DNA of 64,000 bases, taken from positions 6,496,001 to 6,560,000 of the forward strand of contig CM000151.3 of assembly GCA_000004695.1 (NCBI GenBank). The letters are read 5' to 3'. The DNA comes from Dictyostelium discoideum (lineage: Eukaryota). A program made the translations under genes and the position numbers. This document shows positions 14,818 through 24,862 of the stretch, piece after piece. The notes under the pieces are model-generated. The model did no database searches. It had not been told where the DNA came from and saw only the letters and a program-made list of their open reading frames with translations. The first letter of the stretch is position 1, and every line of letters begins with the position of its first letter.

Positions 14818-15350
14818 TTATATATTTAAACGTGATTTTGAATTAAAATTTGAAAGTGTAAAAAATTTGACGATTTCATCACGAGATACATCATCTTCTC
14901 TTCTTTTTTCAATATTTTTAACTTTAATTGTCTTCTTTGCACCTTTTTCTTTAATAGTGATAATGTAAAGAGCACCAGAAGTGATTGAAGCGTCTTGTTG
15001 TTCTTCTGGTGTTGGATTTTCAATATACATAGTTTCAGCATTAAATCCTGCATTACACAAATCACCAACTATACCAATACGTTCTAAAAATAAGTTTGGA
15101 CCAAGACTAATGACAAAGATATCAGGAGTTGAGAATTTATGAGCAATCATTTGACTTTCACTTGACAAAGTTGGAGGTAATTGTTGTCTTCTCTTTTGTG
15201 AATATAATTCACGTTCTCTCGAATAGACCTTATCCATCGCAACACTTAATCCAGTAATTGGTAAATTAAAATTTGTTAAATAACAATTACTATAATAATT
15301 ATAATTATAATTATTATTATTATTATAATTATTATAGCTATTATTATTAT

Positions 15351-15382
<32 letters not shown>

Positions 15383-17143
15383 TTATTACTATTATTTAAA
15401 TTAAGTGGTGAATCATATCTACCACCAACAGCAAGACATTCATGCTTTTCTTCTTTTAATATAACTTGAAACATTATACCAGTTGAATAGAAATTTTCAC
15501 TAAAACAATAAGAAAGATCAAAAATTACTTTATGAGGTGAAATTGACATTTTTTCAAAATAAACTGCTAATTGTCTAATATCTTCTAATAAATCTGTAAA
15601 TGATGAACTAATTCTAACATTGTTATTGTTATTATTGTTATTATTATTATTACCTAAACTACCATTACCAGATAATAATGGATTATTATTTTGAGAAGCA
15701 TCTAATTTCTTTAAAACATCTGGTATTGTACCTTTAACTAATACCCAATTTGCTATTCTTTCAACTTGTTTTAAAGGAAGTTTAAATTTCTCTAATAAAA
15801 CTTTTTTAACAGTGAACCATGGTTGACGAATTAATTGACTCACCACTTGACTAATTTCATTCTTTAAGGTTAGATCAGTGATACCAATGAATTTCCACAT
15901 ATATTCAACGATACCGAAATGATTTAAACGTACGAAATAAAAATTTTGAGTCGATGGTAATGAATCGAAAATTTCCGTTGTAACTTTAATCGTTTCAGCA
16001 TCGGAATACAATGAAGATGAACCAAAAACATCAAAACAAAATTGTGATAATTCTTTTGGTAATTTACCAACTAAATGTGGTTTTCTAAATACATGTCCAA
16101 ATTCATAACGTTTAATTGGTGCTTTTGAAAGTAATTCTAAAATTTCATCAACTGATCTTGTCGTAGTATTAGATTTATCTTGATCATGATGACGATCATT
16201 ACTATTATTATTATTACTATTACCATTACTACTATTGTCATGACGAACATCATTTTGTTGTTGATGATGATGTTTATAATGATCACCAAGATTTAAAAAT
16301 TCAGTTTCAATAAATGATTTAAATGAAACACGAAGATCATGTCTTAATTCTAAAAGTTGACCACTATCATCCATTAATATTGATTTACCAGTTTTATTTG
16401 AAACTTTATTAATATTTGATGTAGATGTTGATTTATTTATTACAACTGAATTTGTATTATTAGCAGTATTTGTGGTGGATGTAGTGGTAGTAGTTGATGA
16501 TGATGATGATGAATTATTAAATAAATTTGGTTGTTCATTCCATTCTTTAATTATTGACATTTGGGGTGTTAACATTTCATTAGCATTATGTTTTTTTAAG
16601 ATTGTTATTATGACATCATCAACCAATTGTTTAACTTGAAGTAAATCTAAACTACAAAATAAGGATTTACTATAGGAGGATGAAGTTACACTTGATTGTT
16701 GATGATGATAAATATGGGAATGAAGATGTTGATGATTTTGTGAAAACAATGAATTTAACATAGTTTGATAGAATTGATTAGTTGGATTTGTAATTACACG
16801 AATTGAATTCTTAATATATTCATCCTCCATTTTTGGTGGCATTAATTCACTTTGTAATAATTGTTGAGCACTTGGTCTTTTTGCTGGATCTTTATCGATT
16901 AACATTCGAATCAATGTTGCCTGTCTAGAATGATTACGTTCAAAGTCACTTGGGAATTCAAATTTTTCACGAAGATTTCTTAAAACGATAACTCTTTCAT
17001 GACCAGTTGAAAAAACATACCACATTTCAAAGAAAACAATACCTAAACTATACATATCAACTTTATCATCATATGCACTATCACCATTTGTACCTGCTTC
17101 TTGTTCTGGACTTGTATAAAATAATGTACCAACTCTTGCTGTA

Positions 17144-17189
<46 letters not shown>

Positions 17190-20003
17190 GCTGTTGTTGT
17201 TGTTGTTGTTGTTGTTGACCTTCAACTTCATCTTCCCAATAATTTTGTGGTTGTTGTTGTTGTTGTTGTTGTTTTGTATTAATTACAGATTGTACAGAAT
17301 TGGAAGAAGTTGTTAATGAACCAGCACTACTTGTTGATGAATTTATGTTAGTTGTTGGTGATAGGGTTGAGGTTGTTTTATTATTAATTGCTAAACCAAA
17401 ATCACCAATTTTAATATCACCACATGAATCGAAAAATATATTCGATGGTTTTAAATCTCTATGAATGATACCTTGACCATGAACATATGCCATACCCTCA
17501 ACAATTTGTCTAAATAATTTCCAAATATCATCATCTTCTAAATTCATACCAGTTTCTGTTAAATTTCTTAAAATCTTTTGACAGTATTCCATCTGAATAT
17601 AAAGATATGGTATCGATGTTGATTTTTTAATATTCTTTAATTTGCTTGATGAAATTGATTTTTTACTATTACTTTTACTTTTACTTTTACTTTTACTCTT
17701 GCTCTTACTTTTACTCTTACTATTACTATTTTTTAATTTCTTTTGTTGTTGTGATTGATTTTGTTGTGGTTGTTTCTTTTGTTGTTGTGATTGATTTTGT
17801 TGTTGTTGTTGTTGTAAATGTTGATTACTTGAACCCATACTTCTAGTATTATTACCACCAATTTTATTATTTAAATCAAAAACTTCAAGTAGAAAGCCAC
17901 AATCTGAATGAAGGAATGAATAACTATCATCAGTTAAATCAAATTCTAATGATCTCTTATTACCATTTTGAAATAAGAATACCTCTGAAAATGATTGATC
18001 AAAATCATTATTCTCTTCTGATTCAAATTCAGAATCATCAGAATATTCACTTTCTTCACTTTCTTCACTTTCACTACTTTCACTACTTTCTTCACTTTCA
18101 CTACTTTCTTCACTTTCACTACTTTCACTTTCACTTTCACTTTGACTTTCTTCACTTTCACTTCCACTTTCAAACTCATCATCATCATCATCATCATCAT
18201 CAGAATTATCATTTGTTAATGATAAACTTTCAGCACTTTCAATCCAAGCTTGATAATATCTTACAACATGTTGATGATGTAATCTTGATAATGTTATTAC
18301 TTCTCTTAGAATTCTTCTATTCAATGATTGATTACTATCCAATTTAATCTTTTTAATTGCATAATATCTGCCATCTAATTTATTTCTAACTTTAACTACT
18401 TGACCAAACCCACCTCTACCAAGTAATTGAATCTCTTCAAAATCTGAATGATATCTAGATTGTTGATGAGGATTAATTGTTTTTTGTGATGATCCTCCTC
18501 CTACTCCCCCTCCTCCTCCTTCACCACTATATTCAAAAGTTGATGGTGATTTCTTTAAACCACTATTTTCATTAGTTTTATTTAAAGTATCCCAAAATTT
18601 ATTTAAAAAGTGACCAGAATTATTTGCTGCTGAATCAACATTATTCTTTAAATCACTTAATGAAATATCATTAAATTGTTTTAAAAAGTAATCTTGAAAT
18701 ATATGTTGATAAATTTGATTATCATTTGAATTATGCATATTTAATAATGATAAATGATTTCTATTAAATATACCCATTTGTACTAATTGTTCTCCCTATT
18801 AATTAAAATAAAAATTAATATTACTTCTTTATGTTTTTACAAAAAAAAAAAAATATATATATATTAAATATTACTTACCAATGTTTTAATATGATCATTT
18901 GTAATATTTGAATCATTTTGACAAAGTAAACGAAGTAAATGAAGTATCATAGTTTGTTGTTTATCAATTGTTTTATTATCAATACTTGAAACATTACTAT
19001 TATTTGTATTATTATTATTATTATTATTATTAAAATTATTAAAAGCATTATTATTATTATTATTATTATTATTTATTGAATGATCAATTGAATAATCTAT
19101 ATTTCTTTGTTGTTTTGATAATTTTGATTGTGGTCCATTTGTAAATTCATTTACAATTGTTTTCTTTCTTTCTTTTTCATATTGTGCTCTTTGAATACTT
19201 TTTTGAAGTCTATAATTCTTTCTATCCTCTTTTAATTGACTTTCTTCTAATGTTGATTCCCATTCTTTTTTAGTATCATTATTATATTGAAGTTGTAGTT
19301 GTTGTAATTGTTGTAATTGTTGTTGTTGTTGTTCATTCGTACTAATTTCAATTGATATCTTTTGTTGATGTGATCTGAAATCATGGTGGATCGATTGTGT
19401 TGGTTCGAAATTATTTTCATTTAAAAAGTCTTTGGCGATTTCACAAAGATCAAATATCATAATGTTACCGATTTTACCTTGAGATTCTCTTATTAACTTC
19501 TCCTCCAATTCTATTGCTTTCTTTTGTGGCAGTCCTTTGTTGACTAAAACTTGGATTGATGGTAACACAACTGGATATTTCTCGGGGAATCCCACCACTA
19601 AATAAATAGATACAAAACATTTCTCGTCATCCCCAACGTATGGTTTGATTGTAATTCTGAATCTTGCACTCTCTCTAATTGGTTTAATACCCTCGATTAT
19701 CGTATCCATATTCCTATTGATTATAATTGGATCCATTGTAATAAATTCGTCGTTGAATATAGCTTGTAACGCTTCCAACTCCATATCTTGTTGATCTTTT
19801 AATTGTCTAATCAATTCTCTATCTCTCTCTTTTTTCACCTTTTTCAATGCATTCTTTACACTTGATTTAGTTGGTAATTTAACTCCACCTTCTTCTTCAT
19901 CACTTGATAAAATATCTTCAATTAATTGTGCTGCTGCTGGTGGTGGTGGTGGTGGCGGTTGTTGCGACGGTTGTTTCGCCTTTTGTTTAGGTTTAGGTGG
20001 CAT
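14818..20003 (-). CDS. GCN2-type eIF2alpha kinase (RWD domain, protein kinase with a large insert, HisRS-like domain); 2 exons, about 1700 aa; IfkA/IfkB-like
   Basis: Exon 1 is 20003..18879 and encodes the RWD domain ([13 protein letters not shown]...[15 protein letters not shown]), ending at a canonical GTAAGT donor in phase 0. Exon 2 is 18795..14818, after the acceptor TTAATTAATAG. The kinase carries [42 protein letters not shown] and GTLFYTSPE, with a long acidic (SE repeat), poly-Q and poly-K insert. The C-terminal domain is HisRS-like (GGRYDSPL). Confidence 0.9.
17150..17290. repeat. (CAA/TTG)n coding microsatellite giving a poly-Gln tract in the GCN2 kinase insert
   Basis: A long TTG run on the + strand equals CAA codons on the coding (-) strand. 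Confidence 0.85.
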
Positions 20004-20611
20004 TTTGTTTTTTTTTTATTTTATTTCTTTTTTTTTTTTTTTTCTATATTTATATTTGTGAATATATATGTGTAAATGTAAGTATTTTAAAATTATTTTT
20101 TATTTAATTTTTTAAAAAAAAAAAAAAAGATTTATTTATTTTTAGATATCAAAAAATGTATAATGAGGGTGTGGGGTGTATTATATTAATTATATTTTTA
20201 TTTTATTATTATTATTATTTTTTTTTTTTTTTTTTTTGATGGGGTTATAACAGAAAAGGATTAAATAAAATGAAAAAAAAAATAAATAAAAAATAAAAAA
20301 TAAAAAAAAAAATATTTAAAAAAGAAATTAGTGAACTATATGTTATTTTATTTTTAATTTATATTTTTTAAAAAAAAAAAAAAAAAATAATAATAAAAAA
20401 AAAAAAATAATAAAAAAAACCAACACAACTGTGTTCTATGGAATTAAATTTAATGCATAAACGGAGTGTTTTTGGTAAATATTGTTGAGTATTTACAAAT
20501 TTGTCAAGTAAAAATTGAGTATGAAATTGTTACAATATTACTATACAATGTATTGATAAATTAAAAAAATAATCCCTATGAGAGTTTGTTTTTTTTTTTT
20601 TTTAAAAATAA

Positions 20612-20642
<31 letters not shown>

Positions 20643-20956
20643 CGTTAGTCTCCCAATGCCTTAAAAATATCTTTTTTTTTTTTTTATTTTTATTTTTATT
20701 TTTTTTTATTTTTAATTTTTTTTATTTTTTTTTTTTTTATTTATTTAATTTTTTTAATATTTTTTTTCATTCTAAAAATATCTTTGGATCTCCTAGAAAA
20801 AAAAAAAAAAAAAAATCGTCATTAAAATCCTTTTATTGTCAAAATTGATTCTTTGTTCTGTTCTATGGGTGGCAAAAAAAAAAATAAAATAAAATAAAAT
20901 AAAAAAAATAAAATAAAATAAAATAAAGAATTGATTAAAAAGAAATCAAAAATTTA

Positions 20957-22404
20957 TTATAACTTATTAAAAAAACCTTCAACATCAATTGAATTAATAT
21001 TATTACCATTTGAATCGTATGACATATCAATTTTCTAAATAATTAAATAAAGAAAAAAAAAAATAAAAAAAAAATAATATTAAAAATTAAAAAAAATAAA
21101 TAAATTATGAAAAAAAAAAAAATATTAGTAAATCTACATTTAAAATATTAAAAAAAAAAAATAAAAAAAAAAAATATTAAAAATTAAAAAAAATATACAT
21201 ACACTTAAAAATCTATTTAATTCTTGAGAAGGAATAAAAACAGTATTAGAATTAATTTTGTTGAAAAATTGTTTTTTTTCAGGATCAGTGGTTTTTGAAA
21301 TAGTGGATTGATCAATTTTAGCTAAACCTTCAATCATACCAATTACTTCATTCTCAATATTAATAACTGGACCACCACAAATACCCATTGGTGATGGATT
21401 TCTAGTTGAAACATAAAATCTTTCTGGTGATTCATCAAAGTGGAAAACGTATGGTGTTTCAATTGGTTTCATAATATTTTCACTTTCACTTATTAATTGA
21501 TATCCATATAATTTACCTTCCTATAATATATAATATAATATATAAATAAATGAGTATAATAAATATGATTATCAGTATTTTTAAGTCACAAAACTTACAT
21601 GACCTTCTTTTGGGAATTCATAATGTTCCAATTCCATAATAGTTGTGTGATATGGTAAATTGGTTTTATTGAAATCATCTTCATCAACTTTAAAAACAAC
21701 AAGATCTAACATTGGATGTAAATGGAATGGTGGTTTTAATGGGATAATATTAAGTAATTTACCTGTTTTTTGCTAATATGTATATAAATATTATATAAAT
21801 ACATAATTAATATTTTCAATTATATCAATTGATATATATATATTTTTCAAAATTAAAAAATATTTACATCTCTATATTCTAATTGAACTTTAATATTTTT
21901 TTCACCTAATGAATAAATCCAACTATATTGATCCTCTTTGTATAAATTTGGAAAATGAAATGGATGAGTGATATGTGCACAACTTATACAATATAAAGAA
22001 TTATTTGGTTTTGATAAGAGTCCTGATGGTGCTCTTGCTAAAAATGCAGTTCCTTTTGAAAGGTTTGTATAATCTTCAACACCACCTTCTGGATATCTAA
22101 AGAATGAACTAATTGTGAGAAGATCTGGTCTTTCAACCATTCTAAATTTATATGCTTCTGTAAGTTCATTATATTCTTCTTTTTGTTTTAAAGTCTGTCC
22201 TTTAAATTCTTCAGTATTCTTTAAAGGATTTAGATTTTTATTATTATTATTATTATTGTTATTATTATTATTTGAAGAAGTACTATAATTATTTTTAATA
22301 ATTGTTTGATTCACTATTATATTATTTGAACATTTTATAATTGAATTACTATTACTACACCTTAATGATTTATTTGCAAAACTAATTAAAGATCTTGAAA
22401 TCAT
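20957..22404 (-). CDS. Trypsin-fold (PA clan) protease-like protein with Cys at the nucleophile position and an N-terminal mitochondrial-presequence-like leader; 4 exons
   Basis: Exons are 22404..21868 (donor GTAAAT), 21773..21599 (GTAAGT), 21520..21203 (GTATGT) and 21034..20957, with consistent phases. The His box is CISCAHITHPF (compare the S1 TAAHC region). The Asp region is DLVVFKVD. The oxyanion/nucleophile motif reads GICGGPV, where chymotrypsin family members have GDSGGP. The N-terminus MISRSLISFANKSLRCS resembles a mitochondrial presequence. The track ORFs 21853..22527 and 21140..21472 are the two large exons, read through flanking poly-A/T. Confidence 0.6.
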
Positions 22405-22475
22405 ATTTAAATTATCTCGTTGCTGGGTTTTCGAGTTATTGAAAATGAAAAAAAAAAAAAAAAAATTTTCTTTTT

Positions 22476-22514
<39 letters not shown>

Positions 22515-23054
22515 AAATTGCATTCATTTTTTTTATATTTTATATCATTTTGTGTGTTTTTGAGTGCTCTATTTTTATACACTAAATCCATATAAAAAAT
22601 AAAAAAATTAAATAATTGTTAAAAAAAAAATAAATAAAATTAAAAAAATTAAAAAATGGAAAATAAAATGAAATTTCATTTTATTTTCCATTTGAAAAAA
22701 AAGGATTAAATAAAAAATATTTTCATTTTTTTTTTTTTTTTTTTTATTCTGTGTCCATGAAATTTAGGTTAACCCCATAATTTTTTTTATTTATATATTT
22801 ATTTTTATCACAAGTTATAAATATATATATTAAAACAATCAATAAAATGCATTAGGTTATTAATCCCCAAATACAAAAATAAATATTTTAATTTTTTTTA
22901 TCTATTTTTTTTTTTTTGTTTTTTTACACCACACATTTGTTTTTTTTTTTTTTTTTTTTATGTATTATAATGTCAAAAAGTTAATTAAGGATAAAAATAA
23001 AAATAAAAAATAAAAATAAAATAAAAAAAAAAATACATTAATTTTTTATTTTAA

Positions 23055-23311: not shown

Positions 23312-24862
23312 ATGACAACAATTGTTGAAGAAGAACCATTATTTTACATTGTTATGTTATCAATTGGATCATTTTTTGCACTTGGTTCAATTATAATAGC
23401 AGTTATATTAATACTTCAACATTTTATTCATTATAATAAACCAAATCACCAAAAGTATATTGTTAGAATTATTATGATCGCACCAATCTATGCGATTCAT
23501 AGTTTATTATCATTATTTTTCAAAAGACAATTTTGGGCATTATTTTTTGATATTTCACGTGACTGTTATGAAGCCTATGTTTTATACTGTTTCTTTAAAT
23601 TGTTAATTTGTTTCCTTGGTGGTGAAGAAGCATTGAAAGAATTATTAAGCAAAAAGGATACACAACCACTAACTTGGCCATTAGGATATTTCTTTAGTTT
23701 TACACCAAAAAAGAGTTTCTATAGATTATCACTGGGTTTAGTTTTACAATATGCAATCATAAAACCAACATTAGCAATTGTTGCAGCAATTTTATACTAT
23801 AATAATAAATATTTAGAAGGTGATTTTTCAATATCTCAAGGTTATTTATGGATTACTGTTATAAATAATATTTCAGTATTAGTATGTATAATTTTAATTT
23901 TTATTATTTTTATTATTTATTTTTATTATTTTTTAAAATTATTAACCTGATAATAAATTAATAATTAATTAATTAATTAATAAATTAATTAGATTGCACT
24001 TTACTTTTTAGTAATGTTTTATGAAGTATTTCAAAATGAATTATCACCACATAGTCCAATACTTAAATTTTTAGTGATCAAATCAGTGGTTTTCTTTTTA
24101 TTTTGGCAAACTGTTGTTATCACTGTATTGATATGGTTTGATGCATTACCAAAATCAGATGTTTATTCATCAGAACATATTGGTTACTTTATCAATGATT
24201 TCTTGGTTTGTATTGAAATGTTTATAACATCAATTGCAATGGGAATTTGTTTCTCTTATTCTGATTATGTTATTGATAAATCAACACATGATGAGATTTT
24301 GGGTAATGGTAAAAGAAGTAGTAGTAGAGGAATTGGTAGTAGAAGTGGAAGAAATATTAAAATCTCTTCAAAAATAAAAAATATTAAAAATAATTTCAAT
24401 AGATATAGACATAATATTGGTGATGGTTTATCAGATGTAAATAATCCAAAAGATATAATTTTAGATACAATAATGGTTGCAAAGTTAAATAAAAATAATA
24501 ATAATACAAACAATAATGAAATTAATAATGGAATAATTGATAATAATAATAGTAATAATATTGAAAATAATGGAAAAAGTAGAAATAATATTGAAAATAA
24601 TATAGATAGTCAAGATGTAATATTATTATTATTATATATATTTATTCATTTCTTTTTTAAAAATTAAATTTTAACATATTAATATTATTATTATTTTTTT
24701 TAGTATTTCAACTTTATAGATTTAAATACAAACGATAAAGAAAAACAAAGTAAATCAAAATATTTTAAGATTAAAATGCCAGATTCTGATCAATCATCTT
24801 TAATAAATCTTGATCAGTGTGAATCACCTTCAATCTTATATGGTTCATTAAATGGTGCTTCA

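Follow-up and report, generated by a model that had tools for sequence, protein, structure and literature searches.

Does Dictyostelium discoideum encode a trypsin-fold protease with cysteine in the place of the catalytic serine, and, if so, is the product a working cellular enzyme? The question is raised by DDB_G0276167, a gene on the minus strand at positions 20,957 to 22,404 of a 64,000-nucleotide (nt) stretch of the D. discoideum genome (assembly GCA_000004695.1, contig CM000151.3, positions 6,496,001 to 6,560,000). This stretch is referred to below as the window; all coordinates are those of the window, and all features of the gene lie on its minus strand. A preliminary description of this DNA had pointed to His, Asp, and nucleophile boxes in chymotrypsin order with Cys instead of Ser, and had remarked that such Cys-type proteases of the PA clan are typical of viruses and rare in cells. 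The latter remark agrees with the literature, where all nine PA-clan cysteine families are assigned to positive-strand RNA viruses (PMC6524800). The analysis presented here makes it reasonably probable that DDB_G0276167 encodes an active, single-domain Cys-His-Asp endopeptidase of the PA clan, HtrA-like and free of PDZ domains, which represents a distinct eukaryotic family and is probably targeted to an organelle.

All three boxes are present in the protein, and each is homologous to a catalytic position of known proteases. The predicted catalytic base, His144 (codon CAT, 21,973 to 21,975), is part of ISCAHI, which starts at residue 140 (family motif AH[VI]THP). The predicted triad acid, Asp202 (codon GAT, 21,704 to 21,706), opens the stretch DLVVFKVD (family motif DLVV), and the predicted nucleophile, Cys285 (codon TGT, 21,377 to 21,379), belongs to GICGGP, which starts at residue 283 (family motif G[MIL]CGGP). 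In hhalign alignments, His144 is matched with the His of TNAHV in HtrA2. Asp202 aligns with the Asp of DIAxL in HtrA2 and SplF, and both HMMER and hhalign pair Cys285 with the nucleophilic Ser of HtrA/DegP (GNSGGP). The catalytic residues also keep the same register in HMMER alignments to DegP, HtrA1, and SplF. Thus, the two programs place the three residues in register with those of HtrA2, DegP, and SplF and not at unrelated positions.

Whether the protein is Trypsin_2/Deg-like or 3C-like had been left for profile searches to decide, and these resolve the choice in favor of the Deg/HtrA type. The Pfam Trypsin_2 profile (PF13365) matches residues 127 to 299 end to end (E = 0.0026, 19 bits). 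It also matches all eight dictyostelid orthologues at E ≤ 1 (best, 3.2e-8) and 54 of 102 members of the wider family described below at E ≤ 0.01 (best, 1.9e-10). At the level of sequence profiles, the end-to-end match in DDB_G0276167, together with those in its orthologues and the family, confirms that the order of the motifs is not due to chance. No protease family besides Trypsin_2 was matched at E ≤ 0.01 when family members were scanned against Pfam. When a profile of the 102 family sequences was compared by hhalign with the HtrA2 protease domain, a probability of 88.7% was obtained (E = 2.6e-6, 160 columns), with tsaHVt opposite TNAHVV, DLavl opposite DIATL, and GMCGGP opposite GNSGGP. HMMER profile searches of the Protein Data Bank (PDB) reached HtrA and DegP at E values of 0.009 to 0.07, and the NCBIfam model degP_htrA_DO matched one of eight members (E = 0.022). 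The matches of a phmmer search of PDB with the single protein were rejected, since they consisted only of poly-Asn and maltose-binding protein (MBP)–linker artefacts.

An AlphaFold2 model calculated with the 102-sequence alignment has a mean predicted local distance difference test (pLDDT) score of 81.6, with residues 90 to 350 mostly above 90. An earlier model based on eight sequences (pLDDT of 65) was excluded from fold searches. The protein shows what defines the PA clan: an active site lying between two barrels of six beta-strands each, catalytic residues ordered His, Asp, nucleophile, and a GxS/CGG oxyanion motif with invariant G283 and G286. The protease domain (residues ~93 to 347; 21,023 to 22,128, with three introns inside) is predicted to form an HtrA-like double beta-barrel followed by C-terminal helices, beyond which ~20 residues remain. 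Residues 2 to 63 are modeled as disordered (pLDDT < 50), with a low-confidence helix at residues 2 to 10. The best 50 Foldseek matches in PDB are all HtrA1, DegS, Deg1, Deg2, HtrA3, or DegQ, with E values from 1e-9 to 1e-7. No PDZ domain was found in Pfam searches at E ≤ 10 for DDB_G0276167 or at E ≤ 0.01 for the 102 members. Overall, it is near certain that DDB_G0276167 is a trypsin-fold protein of the PA clan and a member of the family described next.

An exhaustive profile search, with an initial profile of eight sequences, yielded 262 relatives at E ≤ 1e-3, including 78 at E ≤ 1e-10. A word-indexed homologue search returned dictyostelids only, and queries with the 102-sequence alignment or with the relative P0028 added little to it. 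The lower part of the list of 262 needs checking, as can be seen from P0095, a 1996–amino acid protein matched by the eight-sequence profile over six short stretches (E = 2.8e-10). This protein contains no protease motifs, is not matched by the 102-sequence profile, and was rejected as a CUB-repeat false positive. In all, 102 full-length members (~20 to 30% identity to the query) were aligned with MAFFT, and residues at the three catalytic positions were counted in the best 157 of the 262 relatives after alignment to the profile. The His144 column contains His in 143 of 143 aligned members and the Asp202 column contains Asp in 135 of 136. In the nucleophile column, 117 Cys and 2 Ser were counted among 119 aligned members, with no other residue. 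In the dictyostelid orthologues, H144, D202, and C285 are invariant. As judged from these alignments, the cysteine is a trait of the family and not an oddity of a single gene.

The two Ser-bearing exceptions are P0098 (GMSGGP; locus L005, 39 to 1022) and P0068 (GMSGAP), and the nearest relatives of both have Cys. The Ser codon of P0098, AGT, is one base away from the TGT and TGC Cys codons of other members. The alignments therefore suggest that, in this one family, Cys and Ser have been exchanged through a change of one nucleotide. Throughout the 102-sequence alignment, H144, P148, D202, G283, and G286 are invariant, and L115, G183, G243, C285, G287, G298, and E301 are conserved in at least 90% of sequences. 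The family signature can be written as ...SSWFxxPEQGM...LSRxSAF...AHVTHP...DL...GMCGGP...GMxEG. The invariant Pro148 of AHVTHP (21,961 to 21,963) has no counterpart in HtrA or 3C proteases. The same is true of Glu301 of GM(I/V)EG (21,329 to 21,331), present in at least 90% of members, where HtrA has GINTA and 3C has GIHVGG; this near-invariant Glu sits roughly at chymotrypsin position 214. The two residues may, for instance, contribute to S1 specificity or support the triad.

In the chymotrypsin fold, two residues, Cys and Ser, are known to serve as nucleophile. Because the nucleophile column of the family holds only these two, and because His, Asp, and the oxyanion Gly residues are kept at ~25% identity, a working catalytic site is predicted, and we consider the DDB_G0276167 protease likely to be catalytically competent. 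The preliminary description had offered an active cellular Cys-type PA protease and an inactive homologue as options; conservation favors the first. According to the second, an HtrA-like enzyme was inactivated by a Ser-to-Cys change and now acts as a binding or chaperone module or as a thiol redox sensor. We regard such a pseudoprotease as quite unlikely. Proteins of this kind typically lose triad or oxyanion residues, whereas here His, Asp, Cys, and the GxCGG glycines are kept in more than 100 sequences from several supergroups, and Ser is the sole alternative in the nucleophile column.

Several points nevertheless weigh against an active HtrA-like protease in Dictyostelium mitochondria, including those on the leader that are considered further below. 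The Trypsin_2 score of DDB_G0276167 is lower than the gathering score of 27.6, and HMMER finds no more than marginal similarity to proteases of solved structure (E of ~0.01). A Ser-to-Cys swap of the nucleophile can cripple a PA protease, so that the motif by itself is insufficient to assume activity. For the reverse change, from Cys to Ser, in tobacco etch virus (TEV) protease, a ~10^4-fold loss of activity is given (PMC4576821). A literature search for DDB_G0276167 returned no matches to the gene identifier and no biochemical or localization reports. A search for cellular cysteine proteases of the chymotrypsin type returned viral and HtrA reviews only, and neither a cellular PA protease of the Cys type nor the DDB_G0276167 family was found described.

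The complete coding region of DDB_G0276167 extends from an ATG at 22,404 to a TAA ending at 20,957 and is divided into four exons. Assembly and translation of the exons, all of which are in phase 0, gave an uninterrupted 1107-nt coding sequence (368 amino acids plus stop). Exon 1 (21,868 to 22,404; codons 1 to 179) encodes the leader, a poly-Asn linker, an N-terminal helix, and the first beta-barrel with His144. Exon 2 (21,599 to 21,772; codons 180 to 237) carries Asp202, and exon 3 (21,203 to 21,520; codons 238 to 343) encodes the second beta-barrel with GICGGP and the GMIEG motif. Each of the first three exons contributes one catalytic residue. Exon 4 (20,957 to 21,034; codons 344 to 368 and stop) encodes a short C-terminal tail, KIDMSYDSNGNNINSIDVEGFFNKL; conservation of this tail is seen between D. 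discoideum and D. citrinum and extends in part to D. purpureum. The exons are separated by introns of 95 nt (21,773 to 21,867; GTAAAT...AG, 8% GC), 78 nt (21,521 to 21,598; GTAAGT...AG, 14% GC), and 168 nt (21,035 to 21,202; GTATGT...AG, 5% GC). The GC content is 5 to 14% in introns versus 19 to 28% in exons.

When orthologues are aligned, the sequence around each of the exon junctions EYRD|QKTG, KEGH|EGKL, and FLS|KID is conserved and free of gaps, and the orthologue P0005 (385 amino acids) is encoded on a 1380–base pair contig that is too short to hold introns. The four-exon model put forward in the preliminary description is thus correct, but it is not new, as had been claimed: the assembled protein matches DDB_G0276167 of D. 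discoideum AX4, annotated as "hypothetical protein," with 100% identity at full coverage. An upstream in-frame ATG at 22,527, included in the open reading frame (ORF) 21,853 to 22,527, was rejected as the start; a run of T is read there as poly-Phe, and the annotated start is at 22,404. The segment from 22,405 to 22,527 is noncoding homopolymer of the promoter or 5′ untranslated region that was artefactually included in this ORF. As far as the searches made here show, the gene is single-copy in Dictyostelium.

Since Cys in GxCGG is otherwise a viral hallmark (PMC6524800), one could ask whether DDB_G0276167 is an endogenized or captured 3C-like protease, i.e., a relic of an RNA-virus polyprotein and not an ancient cellular gene. 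Similarity to 3C-like enzymes is detectable. In hhalign comparisons with human rhinovirus (HRV) 3C (51.6%, E = 1.5e-4) and TEV protease (28.6%, E = 6e-4), the acid residue and the Cys of the viral enzymes align with D202 and C285. These matches are confined to the C-terminal barrel, and the affinity for 3C is weaker than that for HtrA. In a viral structure library, the best matches were HtrA-like proteins of giant viruses or phages, along with RNA-virus serine proteases (E of ~1e-8), with Picornavirales polyproteins at E of ~1e-5. The S1 motif of 3C proteases, GxHxGG ("GxH"), is absent, the equivalent stretch being GMIEG, and none of the family members scanned matched Pfam Peptidase_C3, C4, C24, C30, or C37 at E ≤ 0.01.

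The genomic setting also speaks against capture from a virus. DDB_G0276167 has three spliceosomal introns and ordinary nuclear neighbors. Two relatives located on long contigs, P0073 and P0168, lie among eukaryotic housekeeping genes (ELP1, cullin, DHHC, KTI12, and nucleostemin-type genes) and, therefore, in eukaryotic nuclear DNA. Pfam scans of family members revealed no helicase or RNA-dependent RNA polymerase domain in any of them. Members matched over multiple stretches had raised the possibility of a tandem or polyprotein arrangement, which was rejected, because P0092, P0140, P0113, and P0058 each consist of one domain with insertions. Taken together, these observations make a viral origin of the gene extremely improbable.

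Members of the family from Amoebozoa include those of Dictyostelium species, Tieghemostelium, Acytostelium, Arcella, Nolandella, Amoeba proteus, Balamuthia, and Planoprotostelium. Other named members come from the glaucophyte Cyanoptyche, the cryptophyte Geminigera, the chrysophyte Mallomonas, the red alga Agarophyton, and Palpitomonas, and many more are found on metagenome or metatranscriptome contigs. No animal, fungal, land plant, prokaryotic, or viral member was present among 30 clusters looked up and two contigs inspected, and this absence is provisional. In databases, the proteins are named "hypothetical protein," except for one orthologue named "trypsin-like serine protease."

Where does the protein act? 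The leader, residues 1 to 64 (22,213 to 22,404), is basic, acid-free, and rich in Ser and Asn. It consists of a putative mitochondrial presequence and, after it, a linker of low complexity with a poly-Asn tract at residues 44 to 55 (22,240 to 22,275). This tract is an AAT/AAC repeat of polymorphic length; in the protein of a second D. discoideum strain (P0002, 360 amino acids), it has eight residues fewer. The composition of the leader agrees with the mitochondrial-type leader of the preliminary description: residues 1 to 64 contain neither Asp nor Glu, five Lys and Arg residues occur within the first 40 positions, and the net charge is basic. At the protein's own Asp plus Glu rate of 14%, an acid-free stretch of this length has a probability of ~6e-5. 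Judged by composition, a mitochondrial presequence is plausible. Of 30 Met-initiated members in which 20 or more residues precede the domain, 18 carry a net charge of at least +3 and are acid-free over residues 1 to 20. Classic leaders rich in Arg, Ala, Ser, and Leu are often present in unrelated members of other lineages that have long N-terminal extensions, for example, P0028 (MLRLSRGLARAAAVAALHR), P0087 (MLKALRVSLRWAG), and P0126 (MVLPLLRRTRLLSP).

The same data can be read differently. The protein may be an active Cys-type PA protease of the cytosol or another compartment in Dictyostelium, with an N-terminal extension that is just low-complexity sequence. Indeed, the maximum hydrophobic moment of the leader (0.62 at residues 2 to 12) does not differ significantly from that of shuffled sequences (mean of 0.52 ± 0.12, P of ~0.2), and Asn/Ser-rich tracts are ubiquitous in Dictyostelium proteins. 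In most family members, the N terminus is very short (fewer than 20 residues before the domain in 67 of 97 Met-initiated members), which means either that many ORFs are truncated or that organelle targeting is not universal. DDB_G0276167 was also not found in the part examined of the supplement of a Dictyostelium mitochondrial compendium or in two other data sets. Set against this are the improbable composition of a 64-residue acid-free basic N terminus and the classic leaders of P0028, P0087, and P0126. We consider a nonmitochondrial protease unlikely, though less so than a pseudoprotease, and estimate that the chance of a mitochondrial location of the DDB_G0276167 product, as predicted from the leader, is even or slightly better.

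If the protein is an active, organelle-targeted protease, the leader would most likely direct it into mitochondria and be removed after import, whereupon the single domain of ~260 residues would act as a thiol endopeptidase. His144, oriented by Asp202, would activate the thiol of Cys285, and the oxyanion hole would be formed by the main-chain amides of Gly283 and Cys285, which correspond to chymotrypsin positions 193 and 195 within GxCGGP. Catalysis would proceed through a thioacyl-enzyme intermediate and its hydrolysis, as in viral 3C and TEV proteases. Since no PDZ domain is present, regulation in the manner of HtrA would be impossible, and since position 194 is occupied by a hydrophobic residue and not by Asp, activation of the trypsinogen type is not expected. 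The role of the enzyme may be in protein processing or quality control in mitochondria.

If this reading is true, this conserved, nuclear-encoded eukaryotic family, which combines an HtrA-like scaffold with a Cys-His-Asp triad, would be, as far as we found, the first cellular PA(C) family. With DDB_G0276167, a tractable model organism would then have a previously unrecognized protease, possibly a mitochondrial one, and a knockout is feasible given the apparent single copy. Because members with Cys and with Ser, one nucleotide apart, occur in the same family, it would offer a natural system for studying how the two nucleophiles are tuned in one fold. Brenner reportedly proposed, in Nature in 1988, a TGY (Cys) intermediate between the AGY and TCN codons of active-site serines, and AGT-Ser members nested among Cys members fit this idea. 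The family would also be a concrete cellular candidate for testing the origin of viral 3C-like proteases; for those of picorna-like RNA viruses, descent from cellular proteases of the HtrA type has been argued (PMC6524800). A bolder view would see in the family the missing cellular Cys lineage of the chymotrypsin fold, ancient, organelle-associated, and HtrA-derived, perhaps sister or ancestral to picorna-like 3C proteases, and a living TGY intermediate. We consider this view very improbable; nothing specific speaks for it, and, as noted, the family is less similar to 3C proteases than to HtrA.

The surroundings of the gene are typical of Dictyostelium. The window has a GC content of ~20%, poly-A/T intergenic tracts, and Asn/Gln-rich ORFs. 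The GC content of ~17% across 20 to 22 kb is that of typical Dictyostelium intergenic DNA, and very long A/T homopolymers and (AAAAT)n-like repeats are present on either side of the gene, at 20,570 to 20,930 and 22,430 to 22,515. The neighboring genes are unrelated to the protease. On one side, a GCN2-type eIF2-alpha kinase gene with RWD, kinase, HisRS-like, and anticodon-binding domains occupies positions 14,818 to 20,003 of the minus strand. Its two ORFs, 18,864 to 20,003 (RWD) and 14,818 to 18,777 (protein kinase, HisRS-like, and anticodon-binding), look like one gene with a short intron at ~18,778 to 18,863. On the other side, an Ostalpha/TMEM184-type transporter gene (Pfam Solute_trans_a) is located at 23,312 to 24,667 of the plus strand. 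ORFs 23,312 to 23,950 and 24,014 to 24,667 match profile positions 2 to 185 and 183 to 267, respectively, and are probably two exons of this gene.

How does the family compare with known proteases? Its closest structural relatives are the HtrA/Deg/DegP proteases (MEROPS S1C; Trypsin_2), which include mitochondrial HtrA2 and plant Deg1, Deg2, Deg5, and Deg9. These enzymes use Ser (GNSGGP), in contrast to Cys in 117 of the 119 members, and carry one or more C-terminal PDZ domains, none of which is found in the DDB_G0276167 family. In comparison with HtrA/Deg, the SSWFxxPEQGM motif, AHVTHP with its invariant Pro, and GMxEG with its near-invariant Glu are specific to the family, and its named members come only from protists and algae. 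With the staphylococcal Spl/V8 glutamyl endopeptidases (MEROPS S1B), which are secreted bacterial enzymes with a Ser nucleophile, no close relationship is detectable.

The picornavirus 3C (C3), potyvirus NIa/TEV (C4), calicivirus (C37), and coronavirus 3CL (C30) proteases belong to the same clan. Viral PA proteases are structurally nearest to the cellular HtrA (S1C) group (PMC6524800). The viral 3C-type enzymes share the chemistry predicted here, with Cys in GxCGG, His, and Asp or Glu in chymotrypsin order. However, they are parts of polyproteins of positive-strand RNA viruses, while DDB_G0276167 is a nuclear gene with three introns, has no GxH, and does not have 3C proteases as its closest relatives. 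Since the family lacks the hallmarks of S1C (Ser and PDZ) and, save for Cys, those of the 3C type, it is in effect a new family in the PA clan.

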